Shown: positions 2,927 through 34,595 of the stretch, piece after piece
Layout of the letters: every line of letters begins with the position of its first letter
Numbering within the stretch: position 1 is the stretch's first letter
NCBI GenBank assembly: GCA_963847705.1
Contig: CAWKBC010000014.1
Coordinates: 160,001-224,000, forward strand
Length of the DNA: 64,000 bases
Reading direction: 5' to 3'
DNA from: an uncultured Pseudomonadota bacterium
Lineage (GTDB): Bacteria; Myxococcota_A; Polyangia; Fen-1088
Notes under the pieces: model-generated
The model's input: only the letters and a program-made list of their open reading frames with translations
Databases searched by the model: none
What the model was told of the DNA's origin: nothing
Made by a program: the position numbers and the translations under genes

Positions 2927-2999
2927 GGGGATGTAGCTCAGCTGGGAGAGCGCCTGAATCGCACTCAGGAGGCCGACGGTTCGATCCCGTTCATCTCCA
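2927..2999 (+). tRNA. tRNA-Ala(CGC), CCA not encoded
   Basis: Acceptor GGGGATG/CATCTCC with G3:U70; D arm GCTC/GAGC; anticodon arm CCTGA-ATCGCAC-TCAGG; T loop TTCGATC. Confidence 0.96.
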
Positions 3000-3006
3000 C
3001 GATTTT
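2956..3006 (+). repeat. attL core (tRNA-Ala 3' half)
   Basis: GAATCGCACTCAGGAGGCCGACGGTTCGATCCCGTTCATCTCCACGATTTT, identical to 28608-28658. Confidence 0.95.
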
Positions 3007-4158
3007 CTTACTGTTTTTTCTGACACGGGGCTCCGCGGTAATGAAATTCTGCGAATCATTACCGCGGCTGGGGATGGCGGACCGATTGTTTCGAGGTGCG
3101 TGAGTGCGTCCGCCGGCTAGCACGGTGAGCACCCGCCGCTGGTCCGCGCCGGTGATCGCCTCGCGCGCGATGTAGCTTTCGCGCGACGTGGTCTCCGACT
3201 CGTGGCCGAGGGCCTGCGCCACGGCGTGGGTAGTGGCGCCCCGCTCCACCGCGAGCGTGCCGTGAAGGCCGCGCATCCCGTGCGCGGTCACCTCTGGCAC
3301 CTTCGCCGCTTTGCAGATTCGCTGCACCCATTCCCGTGGCCAGTCCCTCCAGTGCTGCCCGAAGAGCGAATCCGTGGGCCCTTTCCTTTCGGCGATCTTC
3401 TGCAGGTACGGCTGCAGAACCTCGGGGACCGGAAGCGTCCGCTTGCCCGCCTCCGTCTTCGTCTCAGGGATCCAGAGCAACCGTCCCTCGTCGTCCAGAT
3501 CGCGCACGATCCGGCTGACGATCTCCGACGCCCGCATCCCCATCAGCAACGACATCATCGCCGCCACTGCCCCTTCTTCCCCCTGATCGGCGAACTGAAG
3601 AGCCTTCGCCTGCCACCTCCGCGCCTCGTCGATCCGGAGCTGGGCTTTCCCATGCCTCCGCCTGCCCACCCCGGTCACCTCTTCCAACGGGTTGCGCGCG
3701 ATCCACCGCTTCCCCACGCACCACTTCAGGAACGACTTCGCCTCCGCGAGGATGTTCCGGTGCGAGTCGACGGCGAGCGGACGCTTCGTCGTCGGCCTCG
3801 GGCGCGTCCGCAGGTCCTCGTAGTAACCCCTGCAGCGAGCCGGCGTGAGATCGTCGAGCGGGAGATCATCCTCGTGGAAGAAGATCCCCAGTCGCCACGA
3901 GGTGGCCTCGATCGATCGCTGTTTGTTCCCCTTGTCGTCCCGCATATACGCCTCGTACTTCTCCCGCGCTTCCCCGATCGTCCGCTCCCCGCCTTTCGCG
4001 AGCTCCCTCCTCAACGATCGGACGACCTGTTTCGCTTCCTCTTCGCTTTCATAGTCCGTAACAGTCTTCTCGCCTCCTGCTGAGACCAGGAGGACTCTCC
4101 ATCGTCTGTAGTGTCGATATGGTCCGAGCACCCGCTCGGGTTTGCTTCTTCGCGCCAT
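2965..4158 (-). CDS. Tyrosine recombinase/integrase
   Basis: Catalytic set GMRASE (R), TKT (K), HGMR (HxxR), LGH, SY (Y); adjacent to tRNA att. Confidence 0.93.
   Translation of the reverse strand: MARRSKPERVLGPYRHYRRWRVLLVSAGGEKTVTDYESEEEAKQVVRSLRRELAKGGERTIGEAREKYEAYMRDDKGNKQRSIEATSWRLGIFFHEDDLPLDDLTPARCRGYYEDLRTRPRPTTKRPLAVDSHRNILAEAKSFLKWCVGKRWIARNPLEEVTGVGRRRHGKAQLRIDEARRWQAKALQFADQGEEGAVAAMMSLLMGMRASEIVSRIVRDLDDEGRLLWIPETKTEAGKRTLPVPEVLQPYLQKIAERKGPTDSLFGQHWRDWPREWVQRICKAAKVPEVTAHGMRGLHGTLAVERGATTHAVAQALGHESETTSRESYIAREAITGADQRRVLTVLAGGRTHAPRNNRSAIPSRGNDSQNFITAEPRVRKNSKKIVEMNGIEPSAS
3033..3067. promoter_or_regulatory. 12-bp inverted repeat; candidate integrase arm sites or tRNA terminator
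   Basis: CCGCGGTAATGA-N11-TCATTACCGCGG; GCGGTAA/TTACCGC recurs at 28516-28522 and 28558-28564 next to attR. Confidence 0.55.
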
Positions 4159-4989: not shown

Positions 4990-6747
4990 TCAGCGGGAAA
5001 TCTCCGGACTGATCTGAATCGAAAGGCGGCCCACGGGATCACGCGCGACGGTCACGACCTTTGCCCGCAGCCGCTCGGCGTCCTTGGGTTTCGGAACAAG
5101 CGCGAGCTGGCGGTGCCGATAGTCGACAACCTGGACGTACTCGGTTCCGGACGGACCCGCTGGCGCTGGAACCAGCTGTCCCCTGAATCGCTGAGGATTG
5201 GCCACGAAGGCCAGCCCAAGCCGTTGGGCGGCCCCCTCACCGATCGTCACCCGTTCCTTTTCCAGGTCGGTGATGAGCGGCGCTGCGGGCTCCCTCTTAG
5301 CGGGCGAGAACTTGTCGATCTGAAGGCGGGGGCGAGAGTGCGTCCGTTCCCTCGACTCCAACTGGGCGATCAGGTCAGATGGGACCCGCCATCGCCCCTC
5401 TGGCAGTTGACTGGCCAACCCATACGCCAACAGGCGTTCGAGTCGACGGACATTTCCCTCGACGAGATTCGCCGGCGACAGGGCGTCCGCGTCGGACTTC
5501 GTGGCCTGCTTGGTTTCGAGCTCCCGCTGATGCTCCCGCGGGGCATACACGCCGCCATTTTCTTTGGCGACTTGAGCGATGGCCTTGTCGGCGGCCTTCA
5601 GCCAATCTTCGGCCTTGAAGCCCACTCTGATCGTGTCCCCCCGGTGCAGGGTCTCCGCGACCTCGGGCCGAATCGGGATGTAATAGCCTTGGCCGTGGGT
5701 CGCCTGCACAGCGACGAACATCTCGCCGGACAACTCGTCATGAAGGCCCTTGCCGACTACGACGGCTCCGAAATTGGACAGGGGCAGTTTCGGATCGACG
5801 AACTGATATTCGGCTGCCTTCTCGCCGACGATGGGATACAGCCGCTCGATGCGGTCGTTCTGCTCGCCCAGGCGGGTAAGCGTTTCCTTCCACCCGCCGG
5901 TCAGACGCCACACCCCGGGTCGCTCTTCGACCGCCAGCTTGAGTTCGGTGAGGGTCTGAAGCCGTGCCACGCAATTCCGACCCTCTGGCCCCGGTCGGGC
6001 GAGCAGCTTCTTGAGAGTCACCGTGCCGTCAGGCTGAACATGCTCGGTCAGAAATCGGTCGACCATGGTGACGCGCTCGACTCCAATTTCCGCCTCGCGC
6101 GCCCGGGAATATTCGAGCTCCGTCCTGGGCCCCAGCTCGCGCGTGACAATTTCCTGCGCCCGCCAGCGCATCTGGTGCTTGATGTAAGCGGAGTCGATTC
6201 GGACGTCGTCACCATCGACGTCGACGCCTCGGACGTCGATATGGACGTGGGGGTTATCGGTGTTGTGATGATTGACGGCGGCCCAGATGAGACGCCGCCC
6301 GAGGTCGTTTTCGACCTGGTTCATCAACCGGCGGGCGAATTCTTTCAGGTCGAGCTCATCCCCATCTTCGGGGGAAACGATGAATCGAAATTGCCGCTCC
6401 TCACCGGCCAGAGGGGCACGAAAGGCATCCCAATCGAACCCATCGTCCGCTCCGTAAAGACGTCCCGGAGAGCCGTCTCGTTCGACGCCGTCGCGTTCCA
6501 GGTACGCGAGGTGGCGCCTCATCCCCGCAAGACCCTGCTTTCCCAGCGTTGCGTACCTGCTCTTGATCACGCATCGCCGACTACTTTCTGCCGGCGTATG
6601 AACCGCCACGCGGGCCGGGCGGGCGGCCTTTCTCGCGAGTCGCCGAAATCCACCCCCGGGCGACGGCACACGATCCGGGCTGCGTCGGCGCCGACCAATT
6701 CGGGGGCGAAATGGCTCCTCTGGATCGCCGAGATTCCAGGTGCTCAT
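4990..6747 (-). CDS. Relaxase, MOBP/VirD2-like with DUF3363-type C-terminus
   Basis: HLAYLERDG (catalytic Tyr), FRFIVSPEDG, HHNTDNPHVH (3H motif), RAQEIVTRELGPR, GLHDEL. Confidence 0.88.
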   Translation of the reverse strand: MSTWNLGDPEEPFRPRIGRRRRSPDRVPSPGGGFRRLARKAARPARVAVHTPAESSRRCVIKSRYATLGKQGLAGMRRHLAYLERDGVERDGSPGRLYGADDGFDWDAFRAPLAGEERQFRFIVSPEDGDELDLKEFARRLMNQVENDLGRRLIWAAVNHHNTDNPHVHIDVRGVDVDGDDVRIDSAYIKHQMRWRAQEIVTRELGPRTELEYSRAREAEIGVERVTMVDRFLTEHVQPDGTVTLKKLLARPGPEGRNCVARLQTLTELKLAVEERPGVWRLTGGWKETLTRLGEQNDRIERLYPIVGEKAAEYQFVDPKLPLSNFGAVVVGKGLHDELSGEMFVAVQATHGQGYYIPIRPEVAETLHRGDTIRVGFKAEDWLKAADKAIAQVAKENGGVYAPREHQRELETKQATKSDADALSPANLVEGNVRRLERLLAYGLASQLPEGRWRVPSDLIAQLESRERTHSRPRLQIDKFSPAKREPAAPLITDLEKERVTIGEGAAQRLGLAFVANPQRFRGQLVPAPAGPSGTEYVQVVDYRHRQLALVPKPKDAERLRAKVVTVARDPVGRLSIQISPEISR

Positions 6748-9024: not shown

Positions 9025-10719
9025 CTATGGGCTAAGCACCGCCTGAACCATCGTCGCCAGCAAAGGTTCCAGGGTATCCGACACCCGTGGGAACTGAGAC
9101 TCCTCCAGGAGGCTGTACTCCCGGCTTAACCGCACGGTGGCATCGAACTCATAGTCAGTCTCCGATTCAAGGCCGACGATGAGCTGGTTATTGTCCTCCA
9201 GCCGCTCCGCGATAAAGCGGATCACCCGGGGCAAATTTACGTCGTCCTGGCCCTGTTGGTTCGGCGAGTCGATTACGAGTGGAACGGAAAACGACCCATG
9301 CGGGCCATGACATGCTCGCCAGAGTGCGGAATAGTACGCGAGAATCGAGCGAGGACCTCCGCTGCCGGAAACGTTCGGGCGCGAGGTAAGGCGCTGCGCC
9401 GCCGTGTTTATGGACGGGAGATTCAATTCTTCACGGGCCGCAGCCAGCGCCGTTCTAAAGGTCGCCAAGATTGACTTCGATCTCTCTTTGCTGGTCAGTT
9501 CCTTCAGCCGGGAATCGAGGGTATCGACTTGCCCGGCCTTCTTATCTACCTCCGCCTGCAGAGCATCGGCCTGTGTGTCGAACGCGCGAAATGCGCTCTC
9601 AGCGCCGAGGCTTTCGACGACTTGACCAAACCGTAGCTCGCCCTTTCTTAGGTCTAAGATGGCGGACACTCGCCGATAGTTGTCATCGAGCGTCCGCATT
9701 TCACGCTCAGTCTCGGCTCGCCGCAGGGACGCCTCTTGCGCATCCTTTTGCAGGCGCACCGCGAGTTCCCGGGCAACCCGAGCATCCTCAGCGTAGGTAA
9801 GCGCGTCCAGGAATGGTTCGGCGTGCTCGGCTCCGCACGTGGGGCACACGATACCGGCGTGAGTCCGTTCTCTGATAAAGCGCGAGTCGCTTTCATACCC
9901 GCGGAGAGATTCCTCAGTCAGTCGAATCTGGTCCGCAATGCTCGCGATGAGTTCCTGCTCACGGACCGCACGATCGCGGAGATCTTCCTGCTTTCGATTC
10001 AGCTCAGTCACCTCAGCAGTCAAGAGGCTGATTTCGCGCTCGAAATCCTTCGGATCGAGTTTCGGTCCTGACGACGACAGAGTCTGTTCGAGCCGGCGTC
10101 GGGCTTGCGCCAGGGAAGCGACCTGCCTACGGGACTCGTCCAGCGCTTTTGCCTCCGCGTCGCGCTGGGCGCGCAGGTCATAATATTCGGGGGGCTTTAC
10201 GCCACTGAAATACTCAAGGATCGCGGTCGCAGGACTGGCAAAGCGCTTGAGGGATTTGAATGTGTCCCAGCCTCCCTGCCAGCTCCCGTCCTGATTGACG
10301 TAGAAGGGAAGAAAGAAGCAGCTCGGATCGGCGGGGACGGCTTTCGAATTCTTGTCAGTCAGAACGAGGTTGAAGGAAGTGACTGCGGCGAACGCCGCTG
10401 CCCATTGATCGTGACGTCCCGTAGCAACGATCAATCGGCCATCATGTCGAAACAAAGCTCGTAGCCCGCCGTGCGACAGGGCTCGGTAGGAAGTGCCGTC
10501 CACGCTGAAATCGACTGCGCTGGCCGCCTCGGAGTCCCAGCGCTGGAGCTCTCCCTGCGGGTGAGCGCCGAGCGTTTCGAAGAGATTCTTAATTATCGTT
10601 GATTTTCCGGTGTGGTTGCGCCCGCTGAGGAGGGTCCGCCGGGGATGAAACGTTGTCAGAAGGGCGCGGCGCTCCCTGCGGGATAGCAGCCAAATAGCGT
10701 CGAATCTGAAGCTTTTCAT
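9025..10719 (-). CDS. lmuB: SMC-like ABC ATPase, Lamassu LmuB
   Basis: Walker A GRNHTGKS, Q-loop YVNQDGSW, coiled coil with CPTC Zn hook, signature SGSG, Walker B VIDSPNQQ. Confidence 0.78.
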   Translation of the reverse strand: MKSFRFDAIWLLSRRERRALLTTFHPRRTLLSGRNHTGKSTIIKNLFETLGAHPQGELQRWDSEAASAVDFSVDGTSYRALSHGGLRALFRHDGRLIVATGRHDQWAAAFAAVTSFNLVLTDKNSKAVPADPSCFFLPFYVNQDGSWQGGWDTFKSLKRFASPATAILEYFSGVKPPEYYDLRAQRDAEAKALDESRRQVASLAQARRRLEQTLSSSGPKLDPKDFEREISLLTAEVTELNRKQEDLRDRAVREQELIASIADQIRLTEESLRGYESDSRFIRERTHAGIVCPTCGAEHAEPFLDALTYAEDARVARELAVRLQKDAQEASLRRAETEREMRTLDDNYRRVSAILDLRKGELRFGQVVESLGAESAFRAFDTQADALQAEVDKKAGQVDTLDSRLKELTSKERSKSILATFRTALAAAREELNLPSINTAAQRLTSRPNVSGSGGPRSILAYYSALWRACHGPHGSFSVPLVIDSPNQQGQDDVNLPRVIRFIAERLEDNNQLIVGLESETDYEFDATVRLSREYSLLEESQFPRVSDTLEPLLATMVQAVLSP

Positions 10720-10743
10720 ACGATTTCGTCCTGAGGCTTCGGA

Positions 10744-11883
10744 TCAGCCTTCTGAAATTGGGTCCGCGCATTTGTTCACAGCCGCCAATAGGACAGTTGC
10801 TGAAATCTCAGCTGCCTTAGCTGAAGGGTGTAGGCCTCGGATATCCTCAAGCGCTTTGTTAAGCCACGGCCGCAGGGGGAGCGTGAGTGGGTTGGCATCA
10901 AGCCAGCGGTCGGAGTCGACGTCAAGAGCGCTCGCCGAGCTCGCAGGGAGCAGTTGCCGACGCGATACGGAGAGACACGCAAGCCGCAACCTTGACATCT
11001 CGGTCGGTGGCAAACCCTCGTCGCGGAGCTGTGCATACCAGTCCTCGAGCAAGGCCACGGCGTCCGGCACCTCGTTGAGATGCTCGAGATCCCGGGCGAA
11101 GTCCTCACGGGTGTACCCTCGTTGCCGGAGCAGATCCTCGTAGGTCGCGCAGGCGTCGGTCCGCCTTCCCAGAGAGCTGAGCTTGGCGATGAGCGCGTCG
11201 ACGAGAGCCCGTGCCTGGCCAGCATGGGGCGGGTTCCTCGCCAGCAGAAAATCGTGCGCGATGCCGACCAAATACCGGTCGGGAGCGTCCGGCGGCAGCG
11301 GGACTCGGAGCACCCTCAAGAGACTGGAGCTGAGGGCTCCTGCCGCTGAAAGCAGGTCGGAAATTGCCTCAGTCAGCTCTTTTGCTCTGGAGGGCTCCAG
11401 GTCCTGGAGGGTAAAACCGACCGCCGTCGCAAGATTTCCGCCGTTCGCCAGTTCCAGATCGCAGCCAGCATTGGAGACAAAGTGTCCCTCCACTCGGAGC
11501 TCGTTGAACCCCGAGAGCGTGAGGCAGAGTTTCCCGAGCGGACTGGCACGAAACTTGGCCGGCCTATCCGCGGTGGCCACTGCCCCCTTCTTACGGCGAG
11601 GGTTTGAGAGGCCGGTCAGTTCGGCCCAAGACCACTCTCCCCAATCCTTCTTTTTGACCTGGTAGACGCGAACGGACGTGGGGGCAGTAGCAGAATCCAA
11701 TTCCGCTACATCTTGAAAGCATTCGAAAAGAAACAGGAAATCCTGCTGCCCCGCACCCTCTGCCTCGAACATTCGCATGAGCGCCCAATGGCGCTGAAAA
11801 TCGACGCCCTTTTGGCCGTGCCCACCTCCCGTCTCGGCGAGATCCTCGCGACTCGCCACGAGCATGATTTCTGGATGGGGCAC
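10744..11883 (-). CDS. lmuA: DUF4297/Cap4-like PD-(D/E)xK endonuclease effector, Lamassu LmuA
   Basis: GG..GQKGVDFQRHWAL, ECFQDV, VYQVK motifs typical of Cap4 nuclease domains; directly upstream of the SMC ATPase. Confidence 0.75.
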   Translation of the reverse strand: MPHPEIMLVASREDLAETGGGHGQKGVDFQRHWALMRMFEAEGAGQQDFLFLFECFQDVAELDSATAPTSVRVYQVKKKDWGEWSWAELTGLSNPRRKKGAVATADRPAKFRASPLGKLCLTLSGFNELRVEGHFVSNAGCDLELANGGNLATAVGFTLQDLEPSRAKELTEAISDLLSAAGALSSSLLRVLRVPLPPDAPDRYLVGIAHDFLLARNPPHAGQARALVDALIAKLSSLGRRTDACATYEDLLRQRGYTREDFARDLEHLNEVPDAVALLEDWYAQLRDEGLPPTEMSRLRLACLSVSRRQLLPASSASALDVDSDRWLDANPLTLPLRPWLNKALEDIRGLHPSAKAAEISATVLLAAVNKCADPISEG

Positions 11884-13734: not shown

Positions 13735-13814
13735 CCTGGCCGCCAGGTCTCGTGGAATGCGCAGCGAGTCGACCATCATGGCTGAGGGTTCCGTCATGCT
13801 CGCTTGAACGGGCA

Positions 13815-13823
13815 TGGTAGAAT
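13815..13823 (+). promoter_or_regulatory. Extended -10 promoter; probable leaderless start at 13831
   Basis: TGGTAGAAT ending 7 nt before GTG 13831; no obvious RBS. Confidence 0.45.
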
Positions 13824-13830
13824 ACACGCA

Positions 13831-14532
13831 GTGACCAAGAACCCTCATGCTGTCGCCCTCGGACGCCTCGGCGGTGCCAAGGGCGGAAGAGCCCGTGCGA
13901 GAGCCCTGACTCCTCGCCGCCGTCGAGAGATAGCCCGCCAGGCTTCAGCGGCACGCACGAGGAGTCTCTCGGCCGAGGAACGAAGGGAGCTCGCCAGCCG
14001 CGCTGCTCGAGCCCGATGGTCCACCGCGACGCCTACGGCCCCAACGGTGAGGAGCTGGCTTCGCGATCTAGGCGCGCCGCTGACTCGCGCCGCCGTCGCA
14101 AACAGGCGGGCCCCGGACCCCGAGCAGGTCGTGGTCCAAGGCCTCCGCCTGGCTCACACGGACGCGTCCGTGGCGAGGGCACTCCCCGTGATGCTCTGGG
14201 CCAATCGCGACACGCTACGGCTCGCCGATTTGGTCCGCCGTGCACGGCGAGCGAAGGAGGGAGCTACTCTCGGGTTCTTCCTGGAACTGACGTCCGAGCT
14301 TGCCGGGAGTCGGCCATTCGCCGCCGAATACGCAGATCTAAGGCGGGATCGGCCGCCTTCGAACACCTTCTTCTTCGATGGCGCCGAGAAGAGCCTGGTC
14401 GGGAAGGAGCTGGCTGCGCTCAACACGCCACCCGTCGCTCGGCGATGGCGGTTCCTGATGAACATGCCGCTCGACAGCTTCGAGACCCTCTTCCGAAAGA
14501 CCTTCCGTGCGCCACCGTCCCCAGGAACTTGA
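13831..14532 (+). CDS. Putative antitoxin/regulator with basic KNPHAVALGRLGG N-terminal domain
   Basis: KNPHAVALGRLGGAKGGRARA followed by two R-R-E-I/L-A helical repeats; overlaps the downstream NTase gene. Confidence 0.65.
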   Translation: MTKNPHAVALGRLGGAKGGRARARALTPRRRREIARQASAARTRSLSAEERRELASRAARARWSTATPTAPTVRSWLRDLGAPLTRAAVANRRAPDPEQVVVQGLRLAHTDASVARALPVMLWANRDTLRLADLVRRARRAKEGATLGFFLELTSELAGSRPFAAEYADLRRDRPPSNTFFFDGAEKSLVGKELAALNTPPVARRWRFLMNMPLDSFETLFRKTFRAPPSPGT

Positions 14533-15079
14533 ACGCTTCGTCGAGGCAATCGATGCGGCGCTGCCCGAGCCCGCCGCGATCCTCGTCATCGGCGGTGCCG
14601 CTGCAGCGCTCGCGTACGGAGCGACCCGGCCGACCGACGACATCGACACTTTTCATCCGCTGACTCCCGTCGTCCAGAAGGCCATCGAAGCGGCGCAGCG
14701 CTCGACAGGCCTGACGATTCCTGTCTCCTTCGCGGCGGTGGCGGATGCTCCCTACGACTTCGAGGACCGATTGATCCCGATTCGTGCGCTACGACTGAAA
14801 CGGCTGACGGTCGTGGTTCCGGAGCGGCACGACCTCGTCCTGATGAAGACGCTGCGGGGCTACCAGCACGACGTCGAGGTCATCGAGCAGATTCACCGAC
14901 GACAACCCTTGGTCTTCGAGGTGCTGCGCTCGCGGTGGAAGAGCGAGATGGGCCACGCAGTGGTGGACCCTCGCCGCGCGAATCTGAACTTCGTCGAGGT
15001 CGTCGATCACCTCTTCGGTCGCGAGCGCGCGGAGGCGATTCGACGCGAGTTGGGACACAGCCGCGGACCTGAGCGATAG
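14507..15079 (+). CDS. DUF6036-like minimal nucleotidyltransferase (type IV TA/AbiEii-like)
   Basis: LVIGGAAAALAYGATRPTDDID pol-beta NTase motif; DLVLMK. Confidence 0.8.
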   Translation: MRHRPQELERFVEAIDAALPEPAAILVIGGAAAALAYGATRPTDDIDTFHPLTPVVQKAIEAAQRSTGLTIPVSFAAVADAPYDFEDRLIPIRALRLKRLTVVVPERHDLVLMKTLRGYQHDVEVIEQIHRRQPLVFEVLRSRWKSEMGHAVVDPRRANLNFVEVVDHLFGRERAEAIRRELGHSRGPER

Positions 15080-15204
15080 GCACGGACAACCCAAGATTGG
15101 GATGAGCGCTCCCGGGTTCCGACTTCATCGGGATACCCCGCGCTGCTCTTGGTCGCCGCTCCTCGGCGTAAGAGCCGCAGACGCAGTTACCGTATCGGCG
15201 TCAT

Positions 15205-15513
15205 CTAGACCGGAAGACGAACGATCTTCCCGCGAAGCGTGGCGACGATGTGAATCTCGCCTCCAAGCGCCTCGACATATCTCTTGATCAGGGACACCCG
15301 AGCATCCGCCCCACCCTGCCGCTCGAGCCGCGAGATTTGCGACTGGTCCATCTCGACCTTCTCGGCGATCTCTTCCTGAGTCACCCCCGCGCCTTCACGC
15401 AGGGCTCGAAGATCCTCCTCGAGGAGATCCCGGAGCGCGTCCTTGCGGATTCGCGCGACCTCTTCCGGCTTGAAGCGTTCGGCTTTGATGTCACTCCACT
15501 TGTGCGTCTTCAT
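15205..15513 (-). CDS. XRE-family HTH regulator (HigA-like antitoxin)
   Basis: LRALREGAGVTQEEIAEKVEMDQSQISRLER..KRYVEALGG. Confidence 0.85.
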   Translation of the reverse strand: MKTHKWSDIKAERFKPEEVARIRKDALRDLLEEDLRALREGAGVTQEEIAEKVEMDQSQISRLERQGGADARVSLIKRYVEALGGEIHIVATLRGKIVRLPV

Positions 15514-15692
15514 TTGAATTCCTGCTCCTTCCGGACCCACTCCGGTTCTATTATGCGCCTGGATCATATGCTGTAAACGCATATCGACGTGATAGGGCGA
15601 CCGGGGCCGGAACTCTAAGAAACGTCGGCCAGCCATCGCCGAACACCCTCCCGAGCCGCTGGCCACTTTGAGCCGCGACCGGAGATGAGATA

Positions 15693-16226
15693 GTGGTCGA
15701 CGCCGTGTCGTACCTCATGGTGGACATCGAAGCGGATGGACCGATCCCGGAGCGCTACTCAATGGTGGCGATCGGGGCGGTGGTGGTCGAGCCCGGTTTG
15801 CAGCGCACGTTCTACGGGCGCCTGCGGCCGATCTCCGAGCAGTTCATCCCTACCGCCCTCGCGGTCAGCGGATTCTCGCGTGCCGATACCCTGGCGTTCC
15901 CGAATCCGGGTGACGTGATGCGCGAATTCTCCCACTGGATTGGCGAGAACACGACCGGCCGCCCGATGTTCGTCTCCGACAACAACGGCTTCGACTGGCA
16001 GTTCGTCAACTGGTACTTCCACGCGTTCCTGGGCGAGAACCCCTTCGGGCACTCGTCGACGAACCTCGGGTCGCTCTACAAGGGCCTCGTGAAGGACTTC
16101 AAAAAGAATTTCAAACACCTGCGCCGCTCTCGGCACACCCACAACCCGGTCGACGACGCGCGGGGCAACGCCGAGGCGCTCCTGCACATGAGGGACGCGC
16201 TCGGGCTGAAGATAGATCTCCGATAG
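15693..16226 (+). CDS. DEDDh 3'-5' exonuclease (RNase AS/DnaQ-like)
   Basis: VDIEADGP (ExoI), NGFDWQF (ExoII), HNPVDDA (ExoIII). Confidence 0.88.
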   Translation: MVDAVSYLMVDIEADGPIPERYSMVAIGAVVVEPGLQRTFYGRLRPISEQFIPTALAVSGFSRADTLAFPNPGDVMREFSHWIGENTTGRPMFVSDNNGFDWQFVNWYFHAFLGENPFGHSSTNLGSLYKGLVKDFKKNFKHLRRSRHTHNPVDDARGNAEALLHMRDALGLKIDLR

Positions 16227-16417: not shown

Positions 16418-16735
16418 ATGGAGCGAGATTGGCGCAAGAAGCTGGCTACTCTGCTGGCGTCGTTGGAGCGAATCTGGGGCCTGAAGACCCGTGTGGCCCT
16501 CGGAGCGACGGTCGCTTCGATAGTCTCGCTGGCGGCTTTACCGGCGGCGAGAGCGGAGGCAAAGACAGACTCGACGGAGATCGCGGCGACCGCCCCCCGC
16601 AAGCCCGGCAAGCTGGCTGGCAAGTTCCTCCTTCGGCAGGCTGGCGGCCGGAGCGGCAGGACGCAGGCTGAACACGGCTCTCACTCCTCGCACAGCTCTC
16701 ACTCGTCGCACCGCTCGGGAGCCTGGCTCCTCTAA
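16418..16735 (+). CDS. hxsA: His-Xaa-Ser repeat precursor protein
   Basis: C-terminal HGS-HSS-HSS-HSS-HRS; hydrophobic N-terminal segment; RBS AGGAGG; upstream of two radical SAM genes. Confidence 0.85.
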   Translation: MERDWRKKLATLLASLERIWGLKTRVALGATVASIVSLAALPAARAEAKTDSTEIAATAPRKPGKLAGKFLLRQAGGRSGRTQAEHGSHSSHSSHSSHRSGAWLL

Positions 16736-16740
16736 CGACC

Positions 16741-17055
16741 ATGTTCGGCGAGACCGAAAGGTCCGTCGAGGGCGAGCGTCAGCTCACTGTCGAGTTGCCG
16801 CTGTACGGGCGTGAGGGACTTCTACGCGCCTGCTATGCCTTCACGGACCGCTGTTTTCTGTTCCTTCGAGACGCCGGTCCCTCGAAGGTCACGGTCGTCT
16901 TTCGTAAGCGACAGAGCCCCAAGACTCTCGAAGCCCTCGTCGAGGAATTCGCCAACGAACTCGTCGGCCAAAGCCTCCGGGCGCAGCTCGCTGCCGAGAC
17001 GAAGTCCGTGCGGGAGCTGATCGTGGCTCAGGCCTTCGCAGAATCTGACCTGTGA
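16741..17055 (+). CDS. hxsD: His-Xaa-Ser system protein HxsD
   Basis: LYGREGLLRACYAFTDRC..EFANEL..LR...AAETKSVRELIVAQAF. Confidence 0.8.
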   Translation: MFGETERSVEGERQLTVELPLYGREGLLRACYAFTDRCFLFLRDAGPSKVTVVFRKRQSPKTLEALVEEFANELVGQSLRAQLAAETKSVRELIVAQAFAESDL

Positions 17056-17279
17056 TCGCCCGTACCCGGACGTTCTCGGCCAGTCTGTACCCGAGATCCG
17101 CCGTTGAGGCCGCCGTGCTCGCTTTCCATGGCATCTGCGAGGTCAGCGTCGAGGACGAACTCGGAGGTATCCGCGCCACGTTCGAGCTACCGGACGGTGC
17201 CACAGAAGATGTCATCGGCGAGTTCTGCAACGTCGCCCTGATCACCGCTGTCGAGATGGAGTTCGGGACCCGTCCATGA
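17052..17279 (+). CDS. Second, shorter HxsD-like protein
   Basis: LYPRSAVEAAVLAF..GEFCNVAL aligns with the N-terminal part of HxsD; coupled to both neighbours by GTGA/ATGA overlaps. Confidence 0.65.
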   Translation: MIARTRTFSASLYPRSAVEAAVLAFHGICEVSVEDELGGIRATFELPDGATEDVIGEFCNVALITAVEMEFGTRP

Positions 17280-18781
17280 CGAAGCCCGTTTTCCGCGAGC
17301 CGAGTCACTTCGAGGAACGGCGGCGGCCATACACATTCCTACCGTTCAGGTACTTGGACCTGGCCGGGCAGAAGCTTCTCGTGAACGAGGTTGGCGAGCA
17401 CCTACTGGTGGCCGATTCCACGTTCGAAGCATTCGTCGGCAAGAAGCTGCAACCGGACGCAGTCGCGTACGGCGATCTAAAGGCTAAGCAAATGCTGCTG
17501 GACGGGCCTCCGGATGTCCCTATCAGGATGCTCGCCACGAAGTACCGGACGAAGCGTAGCTTCCTGTCTGGGTTTACCCGCCTCCACATCTTCGTCGTCA
17601 GTCTCCGCTGCGAGCATTCTTGCCACTACTGCCAGGTCTCTCGAGTGAGTACCGACAAGAGTCGCTACGACATGACTGTGGAGACAGCCAATCGTTCACT
17701 CGACCTCGTGTTTCGGTCGCCGGCACCCGAGCTCAGCATCGAGTTCCAGGGCGGTGAACCACTCCTCAACTTCAACTTGATCCGGCACGTAGTCGAGCAG
17801 GTAGAGCGCAGGATCGCAGTCGAGCCGAGACGGGTCCAATTCGTCATCACCACGAACCTCGCCCTTGTGACCGATGAGATCCTAGAGTTTTGCCGTCAGC
17901 ACAAAATCCTGATCTCGACGTCGCTCGACGGACCGGCATCCATCCACAACACGAATCGCCCCCGACCAGGCAACGACAGTCACGAGCTGACCGTCCGGGG
18001 TATCGAGCGCGCAAGGTCGATCCTCGGTTACGACCAGGTCTCGGCGCTGATGACGACGACGAAGCTGACGCTGGACCACCCCGAGGAGGTCGTCGACGAG
18101 TACGTTCGACTCGGTTTTGACCACATCGTCCTGCGCCCGCTCAGCCCTTACGGGTTCGCGGTCAAGACGAAGCTCAAGACCGGCTACGACACGGACGCCT
18201 ACCTTCGCTTCTATGAGAGGACGCTCGCCTACGTCATCGAGATGAATCGAGGGGGTGGGTTCTTCGTGGAAGGCTTCTCGCAGCTGCTGCTCACCAAGAT
18301 CCTCACCCCGTTCGCGACTGGATACGTCGACTTGCAGTCGCCTGCCGGTGCCGGGATCTCGGCGGCCGTCTACAACTACGATGGCGACGTCTACGTGTCC
18401 GACGAAGCCAGGATGCTGGCCGAAATGGGTGACAAGACCTTCAGGCTCGGAAGTGTCCACACCGACACCTACGAGGCCATGTTCGGTGGCGAGCTGCTGC
18501 GCACGCTTGTGGAATCGTCGTGCGTGGAGTCACTCCCGGGCTGTTCGGACTGCGCACTCCAGACTTGGTGCGGATCCGATCCCGTCGAGAACTACGCCAA
18601 GCAGGGCAACATCGTCGGGCACCGACCGACCAGCGATTTCTGCCACCGGAACATGAGCATCATCAAGCACCTGCTGCGCCTCTATCATGAGGGAGACGAT
18701 CAGCTCCGACGCATTTTCTGGTCGTGGGTGAACAACAGACCAGTCGCCGAACTGGTTCCGGGCTTGGAGGCGATAGCGTGA
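17276..18781 (+). CDS. hxsB: His-Xaa-Ser system radical SAM maturase HxsB (SPASM-type C-terminus)
   Basis: LHIFVVSLRCEHSCHYCQVS, IEFQGGEPLL, YVDLQSPAGAG, YVSDEARML, CSDCALQTWCGSDP. Confidence 0.92.
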   Translation: MTKPVFREPSHFEERRRPYTFLPFRYLDLAGQKLLVNEVGEHLLVADSTFEAFVGKKLQPDAVAYGDLKAKQMLLDGPPDVPIRMLATKYRTKRSFLSGFTRLHIFVVSLRCEHSCHYCQVSRVSTDKSRYDMTVETANRSLDLVFRSPAPELSIEFQGGEPLLNFNLIRHVVEQVERRIAVEPRRVQFVITTNLALVTDEILEFCRQHKILISTSLDGPASIHNTNRPRPGNDSHELTVRGIERARSILGYDQVSALMTTTKLTLDHPEEVVDEYVRLGFDHIVLRPLSPYGFAVKTKLKTGYDTDAYLRFYERTLAYVIEMNRGGGFFVEGFSQLLLTKILTPFATGYVDLQSPAGAGISAAVYNYDGDVYVSDEARMLAEMGDKTFRLGSVHTDTYEAMFGGELLRTLVESSCVESLPGCSDCALQTWCGSDPVENYAKQGNIVGHRPTSDFCHRNMSIIKHLLRLYHEGDDQLRRIFWSWVNNRPVAELVPGLEAIA

Positions 18782-19980
18782 TCAGGCTCGTCTCCCGCGG
18801 CGTCGCGCAGGGTCAGTTCAGGGACGAGAGGCTCGGTCGGATCACGACAACGGCTATCGACCCAGACCTTCGAGCAGATCACGCCTTCCTCGTCAGGCCG
18901 GCATCGGCGACGCCAGACCTCACTGGGTATGCCGGCGTCCTGGTGCTTCCCGGCGCTGAGGTTCCGACGACGGACCTACCAGCGACGAAGGTCGGCGAGG
19001 AACTGAGCTACCTATCAGACGGCGATGTCGTCCTCATGACACCGTCGGGCCGGATAAGCGTCCTGTACCGGAAATCATCACGACACAATACGATCCTGTC
19101 GACGGAGAGGTGCAACAGCCTCTGCCTCATGTGCTCGCAGCCCCCGCAACCTGAGGACGACAGCTACAGGGTTCCCCAGATCCTGCGACTGCTGGACCTC
19201 ATCGACACCGGCTGTGTCGAACTGGGTGTTAGCGGGGGCGAGCCCCTGCTCCTGGGTGACGGCTTCTTTTCGATCGTCGAGAAGTGCAAGCGGCTGCTGC
19301 CATCGACCGCCCTTCACGTGCTCACGAACGGCCGCCTGTTCAAGGATCCGACCTTTGCGAAGCGACTCGGCGACATCGCTCACCCAGACATCATGCTCGG
19401 GATTCCCCTGTACGCGGACGTCGACACCGTCCACGACTATGTCGTGCAGGTGCAAGGCGCCTTCGATGAGACCGTCTTCGGTCTATACAACCTGGCTGAA
19501 CACGGCGTTCCCATCGAGATCCGCGTCGTCCTCCACGCCCAGACGTACCGACGTCTGCCTCAGCTGGCCGAGTACATCTATCGAAACTTCCCATTCGTCT
19601 CCCACGTCGCCCTCATGGGCCTGGAGATGTTCGGGTACACGAACATCAACCTGGCCGACCTCTGGATCGACCCCGTCGACTACCAACCCGAACTTCGGGC
19701 TGCGACGATGACTCTCGCGGAGCGCGGGCTGAACGTCTCCATCTACAATCACCAACTCTGCACGATCCCGCAGGAACTGTGGCCGTTCGCTAGGCAGTCG
19801 ATCTCCGACTGGAAGAACATCTTCGTACCCGAGTGCGAGGGCTGTTCGGCAAAGGCGATGTGCTCGGGGTTCTTCCACTCAGCAGCGAAGCGGCACAGCG
19901 CCCACATAGCGCCGCCGAAGATACCGGCAGTGCTTGCGGATCGATTGACCAGCCTGGGAGTCGAGGCGGCTCGCGGGTAG
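18778..19980 (+). CDS. hxsC: His-Xaa-Ser system radical SAM maturase HxsC
   Basis: TERCNSLCLMCSQPP, SGGEPLL, HDYVVQ..GAFDET, SISDWKN..CEGC..CSGFF; RBS GGAGG and GTGA overlap. Confidence 0.92.
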   Translation: MIRLVSRGVAQGQFRDERLGRITTTAIDPDLRADHAFLVRPASATPDLTGYAGVLVLPGAEVPTTDLPATKVGEELSYLSDGDVVLMTPSGRISVLYRKSSRHNTILSTERCNSLCLMCSQPPQPEDDSYRVPQILRLLDLIDTGCVELGVSGGEPLLLGDGFFSIVEKCKRLLPSTALHVLTNGRLFKDPTFAKRLGDIAHPDIMLGIPLYADVDTVHDYVVQVQGAFDETVFGLYNLAEHGVPIEIRVVLHAQTYRRLPQLAEYIYRNFPFVSHVALMGLEMFGYTNINLADLWIDPVDYQPELRAATMTLAERGLNVSIYNHQLCTIPQELWPFARQSISDWKNIFVPECEGCSAKAMCSGFFHSAAKRHSAHIAPPKIPAVLADRLTSLGVEAARG

Positions 19981-20054: not shown

Positions 20055-21153
20055 TCAAGCTTGATCGGTTTTTGCCTGAACCAGGTTACGTACGTAGGCC
20101 AGTAGGCAGTATCGGACCAGTCGGTGGAAGAACTCTGCGTACGGCAGCTTCTGTTCGGACTCGAAAACTTCGGTCCCCCCAAGTCATGCCGACCGAGGCG
20201 TCCATGTGCCAGTCTGGAAACATCGGCACGCCTGGTGACAGATACATGGGGTCGCCGTTGTGGAGGTAACCAGATCTCGCGTCATAGATTGCCGCTGCAA
20301 CGTCAGCGAGAGTTTCCGGCGTCACCTGGGTATGGGCGGGCTCGCGCGGTTCAGGATCGAAGAAGCCTTTGGAGTACTGCTCGAGGAACCCGACGAATCG
20401 GACCTTTGCCTTCCGAGTGTGAAGCAGGCCGCGAAGCTCGCCGCGCTGGTCTTCTCTTAACTGCTCCATCTTGAAGAGCTGTTCGGCGGTGAGGCCGTCG
20501 AATAGATCGCCTGGGATTGGCTGATCCTGTGCGACCGTCTCGATCGCCGATACGAGGCGGACGAAAACCATCTCGGCGTCGAGACCGATGTTTCGTAGAC
20601 CGCGAGCGTAGTGATTGGCGGCCGTGACCACGCGCTGGTGGTACCTCTCGGGAAGAGCGGAGAGGTCGTCCAGGAATGGTGGCAGCGAAAGCGTGAAATT
20701 GCGGTCGCTCAGTGAGAAAACGATCGAGTCGACCCCAGGACCGGTTTGTCCTCGAAGGGGCCAATATTCCGTCTTGAGCCGAACACCGTCATCTCCCAGA
20801 GGGGGAATCGTCGTCGATACGAGATACAAACGGGCTTGAAGAGAGAGTGAGAAGAGCGCGATCAGCTCACCGATTGGACCATCGGGGAACAGATATCCTT
20901 TCCGCGTCCCTTCTGATCGGAGAACTTCCGCGGCGGTGGGCGGCAGCCTGAGTCTCAGGGCATATTTGTACAGCCCTGCCGGATCCGGGACGAGGGTCGT
21001 ACATCGGGAGATGACAGCACCTTCTCGATAAATCATCAGACCCGGGATGAGCACTTCGGATGCGAACTCGGCCTCGAGATACTCTGCGCCACCTTGAGCA
21101 GAGGCGGCGTCTAGGGTCCGCAACCAAAGCATTCGCTTGTCTGGATCTGCCAT
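20055..21153 (-). CDS. HEPN-domain (ApeA-like) protein; apparent single-base frameshift near 20164-20180
   Basis: FVRLVSAIE helix and IYDARSGYLHNG (RxxxxH); alternative frame supplies FESEQKLPYAEFFHRLVRYCLLAYV to a stop at 20055. Confidence 0.7.
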
Positions 21154-21213
21154 CTTGTCTCTTCGTCCGAGCGAGTAAGCGCGACCGGCTACGGCGGGCC
21201 GGCCTGCTCGCAT

Positions 21214-22146
21214 TCAGGACGTCCCTCTTCCATTGGATCCGCGAACTGATTCGTATCGGAGAAGAATGAAGTGCGCGGCCGTCAGCGCGTACTGTCGACA
21301 GATCCTCGCGTGTTCGTGCTCGGACATGTTCGCGTGGCCGCCGTGAATACTGAGGATCGTGTGGAGTGCGAAAAGGAACCTCTCTTCCTCCTCGGTGATC
21401 AGGCCGTTCGCTTTTAGGAAGGCGCGCACCGGGCCGGGCAGCGCACTCCTGGCAAGGTTCTTCTTGCTCGCGACGGCAGCTGCGCGGGCGACGCCGAGCA
21501 GGGCGATCTCCATGACGTCCCGCCCATGCTTGATGCTGTCTCCCCATTTTCCCGCGGTGTAGTGCTCATCAGTCAGATTCAGATCGTTTGATACTTGCTC
21601 GAGGCCTTCCAAACTCAGGCTCTTGAAAAGGGACAGCAAGGCACCCGATTGCTCCTCGACGTCGAACACATTGGCCTCCCGCACGGCGACTTTGCCATCG
21701 CGGAGCTCATAGCCATCCAGTTCGAGGCAATTGGTCATTCGCTTGATGAGCCAGGAACCCGGCTTCACAAGGCATTCCTCGCTGCGAGCGAACTTCACGA
21801 TATCCTCGACGAGCTTCAGCACGATTCGTTGCGAGGCGATCAGCAGCTCTGGCGCGCTCGCTGCTAGTGCCGAGACTTGCGGCGTCGTCCCCATCCTGGC
21901 GTCGAGACCGAGAACGAAATATTTGATGGCGCCTCGCTGGGGCTGGAGTTGGCGTGCGAGGTGGATCAGCGGTGCGGGATACTCGTTTGCGTACAGAAGA
22001 TCAGCGAACCAGTCGGGGCGGACGCGTTCCTCAGATTTGCCACCGAGGTTGATCGTGAACTCGAAGCACGCCGAGACGACCTCCGCCAAGGCCAAGATCG
22101 TTCGGTTACGAAGCGGTGGCCCAACCACGCTGCGTGCCTCTGCCAT
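21214..22146 (-). CDS. Hypothetical Abi-like protein (possible abortive-infection C-terminal/HEPN-like domain)
   Basis: CLELDGYEL linker; C-terminal helical domain WGDSIKHGRDVME..LSIHGGH; defence-island context. Confidence 0.55.
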   Translation of the reverse strand: MAEARSVVGPPLRNRTILALAEVVSACFEFTINLGGKSEERVRPDWFADLLYANEYPAPLIHLARQLQPQRGAIKYFVLGLDARMGTTPQVSALAASAPELLIASQRIVLKLVEDIVKFARSEECLVKPGSWLIKRMTNCLELDGYELRDGKVAVREANVFDVEEQSGALLSLFKSLSLEGLEQVSNDLNLTDEHYTAGKWGDSIKHGRDVMEIALLGVARAAAVASKKNLARSALPGPVRAFLKANGLITEEEERFLFALHTILSIHGGHANMSEHEHARICRQYALTAAHFILLRYESVRGSNGRGTS

Positions 22147-22399
22147 GTGGGCGAGTCTATCGCTTGGCGACGTCGAGCGGGACCAGCCGCCACTATCCGC
22201 TGGACGGGCCGGCCCGATGCCGACCTTCGGCCTCATGAGGCCGACCACAGACGCGGATTTCTGCCGCCGCGGCCGTCGAGCGCAGGGTGTCTGCTTACGT
22301 CGCCGTCGCTTCGCTCATTCACGAGTCGAGCACCACGACGATCTAGGCTATCTCAGGCCCGAGGTCGCCGTCGCGCTTGGAGGGGTGAACGCTCACGGT

Positions 22400-22579: not shown

Positions 22580-22607
22580 GCCTATGCCACGCTAGCGTGG
22601 CATAGGC
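22580..22607. promoter_or_regulatory. 28-bp perfect palindrome (candidate operator)
   Basis: GCCTATGCCACGCT-AGCGTGGCATAGGC, 86 bp upstream of the Zn-finger gene. Confidence 0.6.
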
Positions 22608-22693
22608 AACAAAATATGGCTTGACCGGCTCGGCCGCGCTTCCTATGGTCCCTCCCTAAAGGCCTAGGGGGGTCTTTCCGAAAAGGAGAACGA

Positions 22694-22921
22694 ATGGCGT
22701 TGAATCTCAAGGATCTCGCAGCCAATCCCAAGCTGCTTGACGATCTGAGATCACGGGCGGGCGGGCGGGGCTGTGTCAAGTGCAGCACTCCTCTACAGGA
22801 AACGCTCACCGGAAAGCGGCAGCTCGCAGACGGCGATGCCTGCAGCGACTGTTTCTACGAAGAATTGGGTAAGCTCGTCGAAGAGCATCCCATCGCATCG
22901 GCAGGGACCCGCCGAAGCTAA
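22694..22921 (+). CDS. Small Zn-finger protein (CxxC...CxxC)
   Basis: CVKC and CSDC; strong RBS AAAGGAG. Confidence 0.75.
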   Translation: MALNLKDLAANPKLLDDLRSRAGGRGCVKCSTPLQETLTGKRQLADGDACSDCFYEELGKLVEEHPIASAGTRRS

Positions 22922-22991
22922 GAGTAAGCCCAAGGGACAGTAGTCCTTCGGGCTTACCTCTCCATCGGAGTGCCGAGGCTCTACCGATCAC

Positions 22992-23939
22992 GTGAATACC
23001 TATTTCATCGGGAAAGAGGAGATTGAGGCGTACGCCCTCGACCTAGTCGGCCGCTTGGAACGCCTTGAGTCGTTCCCACAGGTTTGGTGCCCCGTCACCA
23101 AGTCCGGGGACGCCATCCAAAAAGTCCTTGCGCCGATCATCCAGGCGATCCGACCGCAATTGTTGGAAGGAGTTCGCAGTGTTTCTATCGGGGTTGAAAA
23201 AACTGGGATCACGTTTTTAGAAGAGGCGAATCCGGGCTCTGAGTTAAGCGGGAAAAGCGTGCTTCTTTTGGACGGCGCCATTCACTCCGGCGATACGATG
23301 AATCGGTGTACGGCGGAGATTCTGAGGTATCAGCCCAAAGAACTGAGTAGCTACTCCTTGGTTATGAAGGTCGGAGCATCCTTCATACCGACCTTTTGGG
23401 GCGTCGCAATAGACGAGACCGATCGCGCCTTTTTCCTCTTAGACAATATCCCGAATCATCGCTTGGACGCTGGGCCGACAAGACGTCAGCCGCCAGTCCA
23501 CCTGGAGCGGCTTTCCGAGAAGCACGTGAAACTGCCGCGGTTAGAATGCGGCGTCGGATCGATGGACCGGATGACATGGTCCGATCGATATTTCCAGATG
23601 CAGGCGGCCGAACATCCCCCGTGTACGTACCTGCTCATGCGCAGCCAGACAATCGTCGGCTACCTGACGGTACGTCATGGTTCCAATGGGGTCTTTTCAA
23701 TCGACGAGGTGGCCAGCACGAAGTCCTCAGGGTATGGGGGAATTCTGATGCGTTTTGCTGACACGCTGGCTCGCCAAACGAATTGCGCGCTCGTCCAGCT
23801 AAACGCAATTGAAAATCAAGTCTCGTTCTACTTGAAATTCGGCTATCGCAAGATAGATGGTCGCCGGCCGCTGACCTTGGATGACGAGATCTTCTGGCCG
23901 ATGGAACGAACGGTTCTTTACCACCAGAGACACCGCTAG
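22992..23939 (+). CDS. Phosphoribosyltransferase-like domain fused to a GNAT acetyltransferase
   Basis: GKSVLLLDGAIHSGDTM PRPP-loop variant; C-terminal IVGYL..IDEVAS..GYGGILM..FYLKFGY GNAT pattern. Confidence 0.72.
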   Translation: MNTYFIGKEEIEAYALDLVGRLERLESFPQVWCPVTKSGDAIQKVLAPIIQAIRPQLLEGVRSVSIGVEKTGITFLEEANPGSELSGKSVLLLDGAIHSGDTMNRCTAEILRYQPKELSSYSLVMKVGASFIPTFWGVAIDETDRAFFLLDNIPNHRLDAGPTRRQPPVHLERLSEKHVKLPRLECGVGSMDRMTWSDRYFQMQAAEHPPCTYLLMRSQTIVGYLTVRHGSNGVFSIDEVASTKSSGYGGILMRFADTLARQTNCALVQLNAIENQVSFYLKFGYRKIDGRRPLTLDDEIFWPMERTVLYHQRHR

Positions 23940-28607: not shown

Positions 28608-28658
28608 GAATCGCACTCAGGAGGCCGACGGTTCGATCCCGTTCATCTCCACGATTTT
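28608..28658 (+). repeat. attR core (tRNA-Ala 3' half duplicate)
   Basis: 51/51 identity with 2956-3006. Confidence 0.95.
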
Positions 28659-30782: not shown

Positions 30783-30817
30783 GAATCGCACTCAGGAGGC
30801 CGACAGTTCGATCCCGT
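30783..30817 (+). repeat. Third copy of the tRNA-Ala att core
   Basis: GAATCGCACTCAGGAGGCCGACAGTTCGATCCCGT, 34/35 identical to the tRNA. Confidence 0.88.
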
Positions 30818-34571: not shown

Positions 34572-34595
34572 GAATCGCACTCAGGAGGGCGACGG
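34572..34595 (+). repeat. Fourth (shorter) copy of the tRNA-Ala att core
   Basis: GAATCGCACTCAGGAGGGCGACGG, 23/24 identical to the tRNA. Confidence 0.8.

Follow-up and report, generated by a model that had tools for sequence, protein, structure and literature searches.

The gene cassette described here lies in a 64,000-nt stretch (the window) of an assembly from an uncultured Pseudomonadota bacterium (contig CAWKBC010000014.1, positions 160,001 to 224,000; GTDB lineage Myxococcota_A, Polyangia, Fen-1088). It spans about 1.3 kb and consists of two plus-strand genes, one for a small zinc-finger protein with CxxC-x19-CxxC spacing (nt 22694-22921) and one, with a GTG start, for a 315-aa protein (nt 22992-23939) in which a phosphoribosyltransferase (PRTase) domain is fused to a GNAT acetyltransferase domain. 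The first-pass annotation, made from the sequence alone, had described this pair, and both open reading frames (ORFs) were found, as were the three motifs it quoted. The coding features are as follows (PRPP, phosphoribosyl pyrophosphate):

22694..22921, plus strand: C4 treble-clef-like zinc-finger protein, 75 aa, with a basic C-terminal tail; predicted antitoxin (motif, conservation, model)
22992..23441, plus strand: N-terminal 6-oxopurine-PRTase (HGPRT/Gpt-like) domain with an altered PRPP loop, D-[GS]-x-x-H-[ST]-G (structural match 4z1o, conservation)
23484..23939, plus strand: C-terminal GNAT domain, predicted to be the toxic part, with Tyr280 and the acetyl-CoA loop (Pfam, structural match, conservation)

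In the fusion protein, Acetyltransf_1 (residues 195-285, E 2.5e-4) scored above the Pfam cut-off and Pribosyltran (residues 67-125, E 1e-4) below it, and the AlphaFold2 model shows two domains (predicted local distance difference test, pLDDT, 91; predicted template modelling score, pTM, 0.90), both of them intact and under selection. The zinc finger matched no Pfam family above cut-off. PADLOC gave no match for either window protein, NCBIfam returned no family above cut-off, and PHROG only a weak acetyltransferase match. Across the wider family, weak PADLOC matches were seen to PsyrT (9/123 members) and ShosT (5/123), and with no more than 14 of 123 members matching in this way, assignment to a named system was rejected. 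This bears out the earlier impression that the architecture belongs to none. The literature searched, with most subscription papers and the DefensePredictor supplements outside its scope, held no description of the pair, nor was there a match in the text supplement of PMC9177977. The pair is real, conserved and apparently undescribed.

Conservation and spread of the gene pair

A search for the fusion returned 100 matches among 5931 candidates (self included), its profile gathered 148 clusters at 50% identity (E up to 1e-30), and pattern scans found 22 loci in GTDB genomes and 66 in metagenomes, these locus counts being lower bounds set by the patterns used. Named hosts include Verrucomicrobia, a Myxococcales bin, Alphaproteobacteria, Gallionella, Planctomycetota and Chitinispirillaceae. 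Pattern-limited scans found the fusion in 0 of 150 relatives of the host and the zinc finger in 0 of 400 genomes of the host phylum, and the fusion had no match in IMG/VR by pattern or in plasmid and phage collections by tblastn. The ESM Atlas holds a cluster of 307-aa proteins (56 members, PF00156 plus PF00583, automatically named orotate PRTase) and two unnamed clusters of 463-506 aa, all with a score of 0.83; being below 0.9, they are taken as leads to further PRTase-GNAT fusions.

Pairing was counted over the 88 loci (labelled L below) and the window, keeping those in which the N-terminus of the fusion matched and at least 330 nt lay upstream. A zinc-finger gene is found directly upstream of the fusion in 75/75 eligible loci (74 by pattern, plus L053) and, once near-duplicates are removed, in all 57 loci with room for it, another four having no room. 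The small gene is therefore a conserved partner, as the first-pass annotation had supposed. Left out of the count were loci whose match covered no more than the middle or the end of the fusion, among them L022, a short spurious match, and L061, where the match begins at residue 69 and no zinc finger lies upstream; the latter may be an exception to the pairing or a truncated copy. Pairwise distances of the zinc fingers and the fusions are correlated (Mantel r 0.90, 46 pairs, equal for both domains), a value that does not by itself show binding, because linked genes correlate anyway. In a shallow alignment of 164 rows, the top covarying pairs between the two domains look like clade markers. No fused zinc-finger form occurred among 7993 longer candidates scored (weak evidence), and the N-terminal extensions of long fusion members are not zinc fingers.

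The two genes form a cassette that travels as a unit, in many bacteria of soil and water, on mobile DNA and on DNA rich in defence genes. A two-gene operon with the small gene first and a mobile, patchy distribution is the general layout of toxin‒antitoxin (TA) systems of type II, and the cassette is probably an undescribed TA-like module. We favour, at a rough probability of 0.45, a GNAT warhead governed by a PRTase sensor, of which toxicity, binding, target and ligand are what we infer. Growth would be blocked when the acetyltransferase half attaches an acetyl group to an amine of the translation machinery, that of aminoacyl-tRNA being the likeliest, and the zinc finger would keep the fusion in check. 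The PRTase half would serve as a bound-nucleotide switch, not a salvage enzyme, its presumed ligand being PRPP, a purine nucleotide or a (p)ppGpp-like molecule. Release could follow the loss of a labile zinc finger after host shut-off, or a shift of the PRPP or nucleotide pool during infection, and either abortive infection or maintenance of the carrier element would be the gain.

Four loci carry a frameshifted or truncated fusion gene beside an intact zinc-finger gene, and a fifth (L087) has an internal deletion; the reverse case, a broken zinc finger with an intact fusion, was not seen among the loci examined. The direction of this asymmetry fits a toxic fusion, but it is not significant given that the fusion gene is fourfold longer, and some of the breaks are possibly sequencing errors.

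The PRTase, GNAT and zinc-finger proteins

The N-terminal half has the type I PRTase fold with its pyrophosphate (PPi) and PRPP loops, and lacks the adjacent pair of acids and the catalytic Asp of the loop III motif EDIID. In the VIA structural comparison its best match was the archaeal HGXPRT 4z1o (Z 16.0, root-mean-square deviation (rmsd) 3.1, 134 residues aligned), and PyrR (1w30) scored Z 13.3. Among 164 full-length members, the residues retained are S38 (159), G39 (161), D94 (161), H98 (150), G100 (164), K126 (149), P133 (164), D144 (163), R145 (159), P154 (156), N155 (149) and R157 (151). Residue 95 is Gly in 79 and Ser in 76 (155/164 together), so the altered PRPP loop first noticed in the window, with DG for DD, is a family-wide trait. 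In Bacillus anthracis HPRT, ppGpp and PRPP are bound through loop I and loop III (Glu99, Asp100, Asp103-Thr107), with Arg165, Lys131 and a cleft of Ile101, Phe152 and Leu158 also part of the site (PMC6783271). Alignment to the host's own HPRT-like ORF equates D94 with Glu99, G95 with Asp100, A96 with Ile101, H98 with Asp103 and K126 with Lys131; D144 falls on Phe152, the base-stacking Phe, and D151 on the following Asp in low-confidence hhalign columns, and the pairing of R157 with Arg165 depends on a gap. By this mapping the phosphate sites are kept, and the catalytic acids and, it appears, the base pocket are rebuilt.

The fusion shares with HGPRT/Gpt, PyrR and PurR the fold, the PPi loop (S38-G39), the first acid (D94), the 5'-phosphate loop and Lys126. 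It differs from HGPRT/Gpt in the second acid (Gly/Ser), the replacement of the catalytic Asp by His, the fused GNAT and the absence of salvage neighbours, and from HGPRT in having Ala/Ser and Asp at the base-pocket positions Ile101 and Phe152 (the latter in low-confidence columns). A salvage enzyme was rejected on the lost DD and catalytic Asp together with context. A PRPP loop reduced to D-[GS]-x-x-H, without second acid and catalytic Asp, is what one would predict for a binding domain. The PRTase half may bind PRPP or a nucleotide, or else be an enzyme with a new acceptor.

The second of these options leads to an alternative that we regard as unlikely, namely a TA or defence pair whose PRTase is catalytic and, as has been proposed for ShosT, spends PRPP or phosphoribosylates an unusual acceptor, with the GNAT acetylating the product to give a new modified nucleotide, or only regulating. 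Columns conserved at 90% or more number 17 in the PRTase and 5 in the GNAT, and this stricter conservation keeps a catalytic PRTase, rather than a sensor, in play. The invariant new D144-R145 pair appears, in low-confidence columns, to stand where HPRT has its base-stacking Phe, and a conserved His occupies the catalytic position. Four divergent fusion members (P0212, P0234, P0235 and P0244) retain the PRTase motifs but show decay of the acetyl-CoA loop or Tyr. A single acid in the PRPP loop is enough for activity in UPRT, and the pTM of 0.90 may point to a rigid two-domain unit. The weak PsyrT and ShosT matches lean the same way, as does the dependence of ShosT toxicity on its PRTase, yet ShosT needs its DD pair, D331A/D332A abolishing toxicity (PMC11961720), and the family has none. 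Losses of either site are also about equally rare (Tyr280 absent from 12/164 members, two or more of nine PRTase residues from 8/164), and the start of the GNAT domain points to TA toxins.

The top VIA matches of the C-terminal half were TA toxins: 7byy (titled bacterial toxin; Z 15.4, rmsd 2.9, 143 aligned), TacT2 (15.3), TacT3 (14.9) and AtaT (14.5). The GNAT fold and acetyl-CoA loop are present, with Tyr280 retained in 152/164 members and G249 in 137/164. The motif LECGVGSMDR had been likened to the start of TacT/AtaT-type toxins, and an N-terminal signature, L-x-x-x-H...[SC]G-x-x-x-[LM]D, is indeed common to these toxins and the family. Two sets were scored, 26 GNATs encoded next to TacA1 (30 loci) and 21 further GNATs from the host genome, and a profile of family residues 168-229 gave medians of 6.7 and -1.4 bits, respectively, with p values overstated by the relatedness of the sequences; the acetyl-CoA half of the domain discriminates little between TA and ordinary GNATs. 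A hand-made motif, drawn after the sequences had been seen, occurs in 74/164 family members, 20/26 TA GNATs and 0/21 ordinary ones. In profile-profile alignment, the start and the Tyr are common to the family and the TA toxins.

A number of observations weigh against a toxin of this type. The hhalign comparison has a 19-column gap at the beta2-beta3 insertion of the TA toxins, where the fusion model has a beta-hairpin without helix, and the family has Asp-Glu in place of the Gly-Arg of GRLAV. In TacT/AtaT, the insertion and a basic patch are needed for the dimer and the tRNA site (PMC4942678, PMC7595197). The net charge of the domain is near neutral (median +1 vs +3), and a quick tree set 26 TA rows apart (support 90) from 25 family rows and gave the family no supported sister, its deep links being unsettled. 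The Z scores of the TA toxins tie with those of Ard1 (14.8) and RimI (14.2), and Foldseek and PDB profile searches placed PaiA/Ard1/RimI-like proteins first, with no TA toxin among the matches listed. From its sequence, the GNAT half is taken to resemble TacT/AtaT toxins in part and not to be one of them. Because the insertion and Arg are missing and the family lies outside the TA clade, a tRNA target is a guess; one might speculate that the PRTase domain provides the surface contributed in TacT by the second subunit, which is missing here. TA-like GNAT pairs that lack an explanation have been noted beyond that clade, in a tree limited to proteins of 150-245 aa (PMC9177977), which places the 315-aa fusion beyond it.

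A rather improbable alternative is a non-toxic accessory unit, a regulated acetyltransferase acting on a small-molecule amine, a lysine or the N-terminus of a protein. It would serve to detoxify or to regulate stress, and the zinc finger would be its adaptor or a subunit. Whole-domain similarity is highest to Ard1/RimI and to streptothricin and polyamine acetyltransferases, and the acidic residues of the acceptor strand would suit a basic amine. Gene neighbourhoods bear on it from both sides. The flanks of 46 distinct loci were compared over about 4.5 kb per side by simple ORF picking (242 of 287 picked ORFs searched against Pfam, 85 against PADLOC and 50 against PHROGs), and about 17 of the loci have housekeeping neighbours only, which speaks for such an enzyme and against the favoured reading. 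Yet no metabolic gene or pathway recurs, and the pair is wedged into unrelated operons: rplA-rplJ (L019 and L021, in two Rhizobiales/Hyphomicrobiales bins), murD-ftsW (L077), nuo (L005) and between hsdS and hsdR (L010). Its rarity, patchy spread and small-gene-first layout also argue against a non-toxic accessory enzyme. The first-pass annotation had counted nucleotide-salvage surroundings as evidence against its proposal; no salvage gene recurs among the annotated neighbours of the 46 loci.

Clear defence genes lie within about 4.5 kb in 12/46 distinct loci and comprise type I, IIG and III restriction-modification, GmrSD, HmaBC, Septu, Old and Hhe-like helicase-nuclease genes; in L020 the pair sits between HmaC-like and HmaB-like genes. 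About ten further loci have integrases, recombinases, transposases or phage genes as neighbours. The control consisted of 19 random 10.2-kb windows of the host genome only, in which three of the four PADLOC matches at 1e-20 were generic (two sigma-54 activators and a kinase) and the fourth, MzaA, doubtful. Read strictly, 0-1 of the 19 windows have defence genes, and the Fisher p value is 0.013, 0.09 or 0.76 when 0, 1 or 4 windows are counted, so that in this one-genome control counting all raw matches (4/19) removes the difference. Defence-gene enrichment around the cassette is therefore suggestive only.

Turning to the small protein, seven residues are invariant in 58 zinc fingers (C27, C30, E36, T39, G40, C50 and P66), and a conserved surface motif, E-x-x-T-G-x-R, lies between the Cys pairs. 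The C-terminus is RRG, RRS or RRA in 42/58, possibly a degradation tag. Treble-clef fingers (the zinc-binding domain (ZBD) of ClpX, the anti-sigma factor CsfB, LIM and GATA) share the CxxC-x19-CxxC arrangement followed by a helix, all as weak matches to the model (pLDDT 84; best Z 3.1, Foldseek E 0.25 or more). Ribbon-helix-helix (RHH), helix-turn-helix (HTH), DUF1778 and DUF4065 families are missing from the top Pfam families of the 58 zinc fingers, which counts against a conventional antitoxin. It is very improbable that the zinc finger works instead as a sensor or activator, binding a phage protein and so turning on a silent fusion, for although the surface motif, the near-zero net charge without a DNA-binding fold and the mostly protein-binding nature of treble-clef folds (weak fold matches) would suit that role, an intact zinc finger beside broken fusions, or alone on a viral contig (L120), is easier to explain as an antidote.

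That contig carries a zinc-finger homologue (nt 469-750) 45% identical to that of the window and was the only real zinc finger among 11 stretches found by a codon-pattern scan of IMG/VR. The gene lies in a replication region upstream of Sak4-like and polymerase-like genes, a longer extension replaces the basic tail, and no fusion follows it; none was found in the record, which is 25% complete and was searched without a positive control. A captured antidote and a decayed cassette both fit. A further viral record, L133, contains the first part of the L011 cassette, next to a portal gene where the record is cut off.

Upstream region and carrier element

The non-coding features of the cassette are:

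22580..22607, no strand: perfect 28-bp palindrome immediately upstream of the -35 box; either a hairpin or an operator, limited to one clade (sequence search)
22621..22649, plus strand: predicted sigma-70-type promoter, TTGACC-17-TATGGT (1 site found, 0.5 expected by chance)
22921..22961, plus strand: intergenic hairpin, possible attenuator (RNA fold z -3.5)

The palindrome, reported in the first-pass annotation as lying in front of the pair, is indeed perfect (arms 14+14, 100% complementary, no loop; RNA fold z -6.1). The 6.1-Mb genome has two loop-free palindromes with arms of at least 14, or nine if loops of 0-4 are allowed. In L024, L026 and L028 a homologous palindrome precedes the start codon by 108-114 nt, and the four sequences show three two-sided and two wobble changes with 48/48 cells paired. 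The loop is 0-3 nt and the distance from centre to -35 box 27-31.5 bp. These changes suggest selection in one clade, on something more like a hairpin than a phased operator. As the palindrome is missing from 46/50 upstream regions and loop and spacing vary, it is unlikely to be the operator of the pair and does not define the system. A REP-like repeat was rejected, the genome having a single copy, and a class I activator site because the distance from the -35 box differs by up to 4.5 bp between loci. Judged by eye, the palindrome is also no attC or dif site, being too short, free of bulges and unlike them in sequence; Rfam gave nothing near a gathering score. The predicted promoter lies between the palindrome and the zinc-finger gene, its -35 and -10 columns are conserved in four aligned loci, and TTGAC is present in 33/50 upstream regions. 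The intergenic hairpin, like the promoter an addition to the first-pass annotation, may lower expression of the fusion gene as an attenuator. PyrR-like attenuation through this hairpin was rejected, since its sequence is not conserved and many of the gaps between the two genes, which range from 0 to 143 nt across relatives, are 0-10 nt.

In the window, the cassette is cargo of a 25.7-kb integrative element inserted in tRNA-Ala(CGC) (nt 2956-28658), whose left end holds the integrase and DUF3363 relaxase genes:

2956..3006, plus strand: left att site, the 3' half of tRNA-Ala CGC (gene 2927-3000) (repeat search)
28608..28658, plus strand: right att site, a 51-bp perfect repeat of the left (repeat search)
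2965..4158, minus strand: tyrosine integrase (PF00589, E 1.4e-11)
4990..6747, minus strand: DUF3363/VirD2-like relaxase (PF11843, E 1e-33)

The GC content falls from 69.1% in the genome and 68.4% in the flanks to 60.7% in the element, 60% in the zinc-finger gene and 54.8% in the fusion gene, in agreement with the lower GC first remarked on, and the setting among defence genes was also recovered, with an FRG protein (PADLOC PDC-S15, E 4e-28), an NB-ARC-TPR protein and a Cap4-type nuclease gene nearby. The last is followed by a long coiled-coil ATPase-like ORF (9025-11883, minus strand; Pfam match for the nuclease only), in a Lamassu-like layout. Other cargo includes, at 13804-16226, a DUF6036 nucleotidyltransferase whose partner lies upstream, together with an HTH gene and a DEDD exonuclease that matches a PADLOC effector model at E 4e-37, and, placed among defence genes, a complete His-Xaa-Ser cluster with an HxsA-like peptide, HxsD, an HxsD-like protein and two radical SAM genes (16418-19980). 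Two unannotated minus-strand ORFs (20086-22248), divergent from the cassette, gave no Pfam or PADLOC match; one, of 375 aa, has R-x4-H near its end and by eye is HEPN RNase-like. Degenerate att copies outside the right att site (30783-30817 and 34572-34595) point to earlier insertions in tandem into this site. A genome of the same genus (G001) has only the integrase start and att site in common over 40 kb compared.

Relation to known systems and biological meaning

As a cassette, the pair is closest to TacT, AtaT, ItaT and KacT in its small first gene, GNAT fold, acetyl-CoA loop, Tyr and mobile, patchy spread. Unlike TacT/AtaT, it has a fused PRTase, a zinc-finger partner in place of RHH/DUF1778 (TacA) or DUF4065, and an acidic acceptor strand. 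A PRTase domain in a two-gene conflict module also recalls ShosTA, PsyrTA and DS-32, but a GNAT and this zinc finger are absent from all three. ShosT resembles APRT, retains the DD pair, is fused to a pyrophosphatase and has a non-binding, DprA-like antitoxin (PMC11961720), a definition that the fusion does not fit, and in DS-32 the PRTase is paired with NADAR (bioRxiv 2025.01.08.631726).

A bolder proposal, which we hold to be doubtful, is a new class of bacterial immune module in which a rebuilt-pocket PRTase and an acetyltransferase function as a single unit. This could be a toxin whose gate is PRPP or a nucleotide altered by phage, or else a two-step enzyme, phosphoribosylation coming before acetylation, with an unknown antiviral nucleotide as its product. 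The module's new zinc-finger antitoxin would have been captured and stabilised by at least one phage as counter-defence. The known acetyltransferase toxins are, to our knowledge, controlled only by a DNA-binding antitoxin, and the known PRTase toxins kill by themselves. In a toxin with both domains and a zinc-finger partner, release would depend on the status of PRPP or nucleotides, which phage replication perturbs, and the antitoxin would have a new fold. The family may also represent a step in the origin of the tRNA-acetylating toxins, before the dimer insertion was gained.

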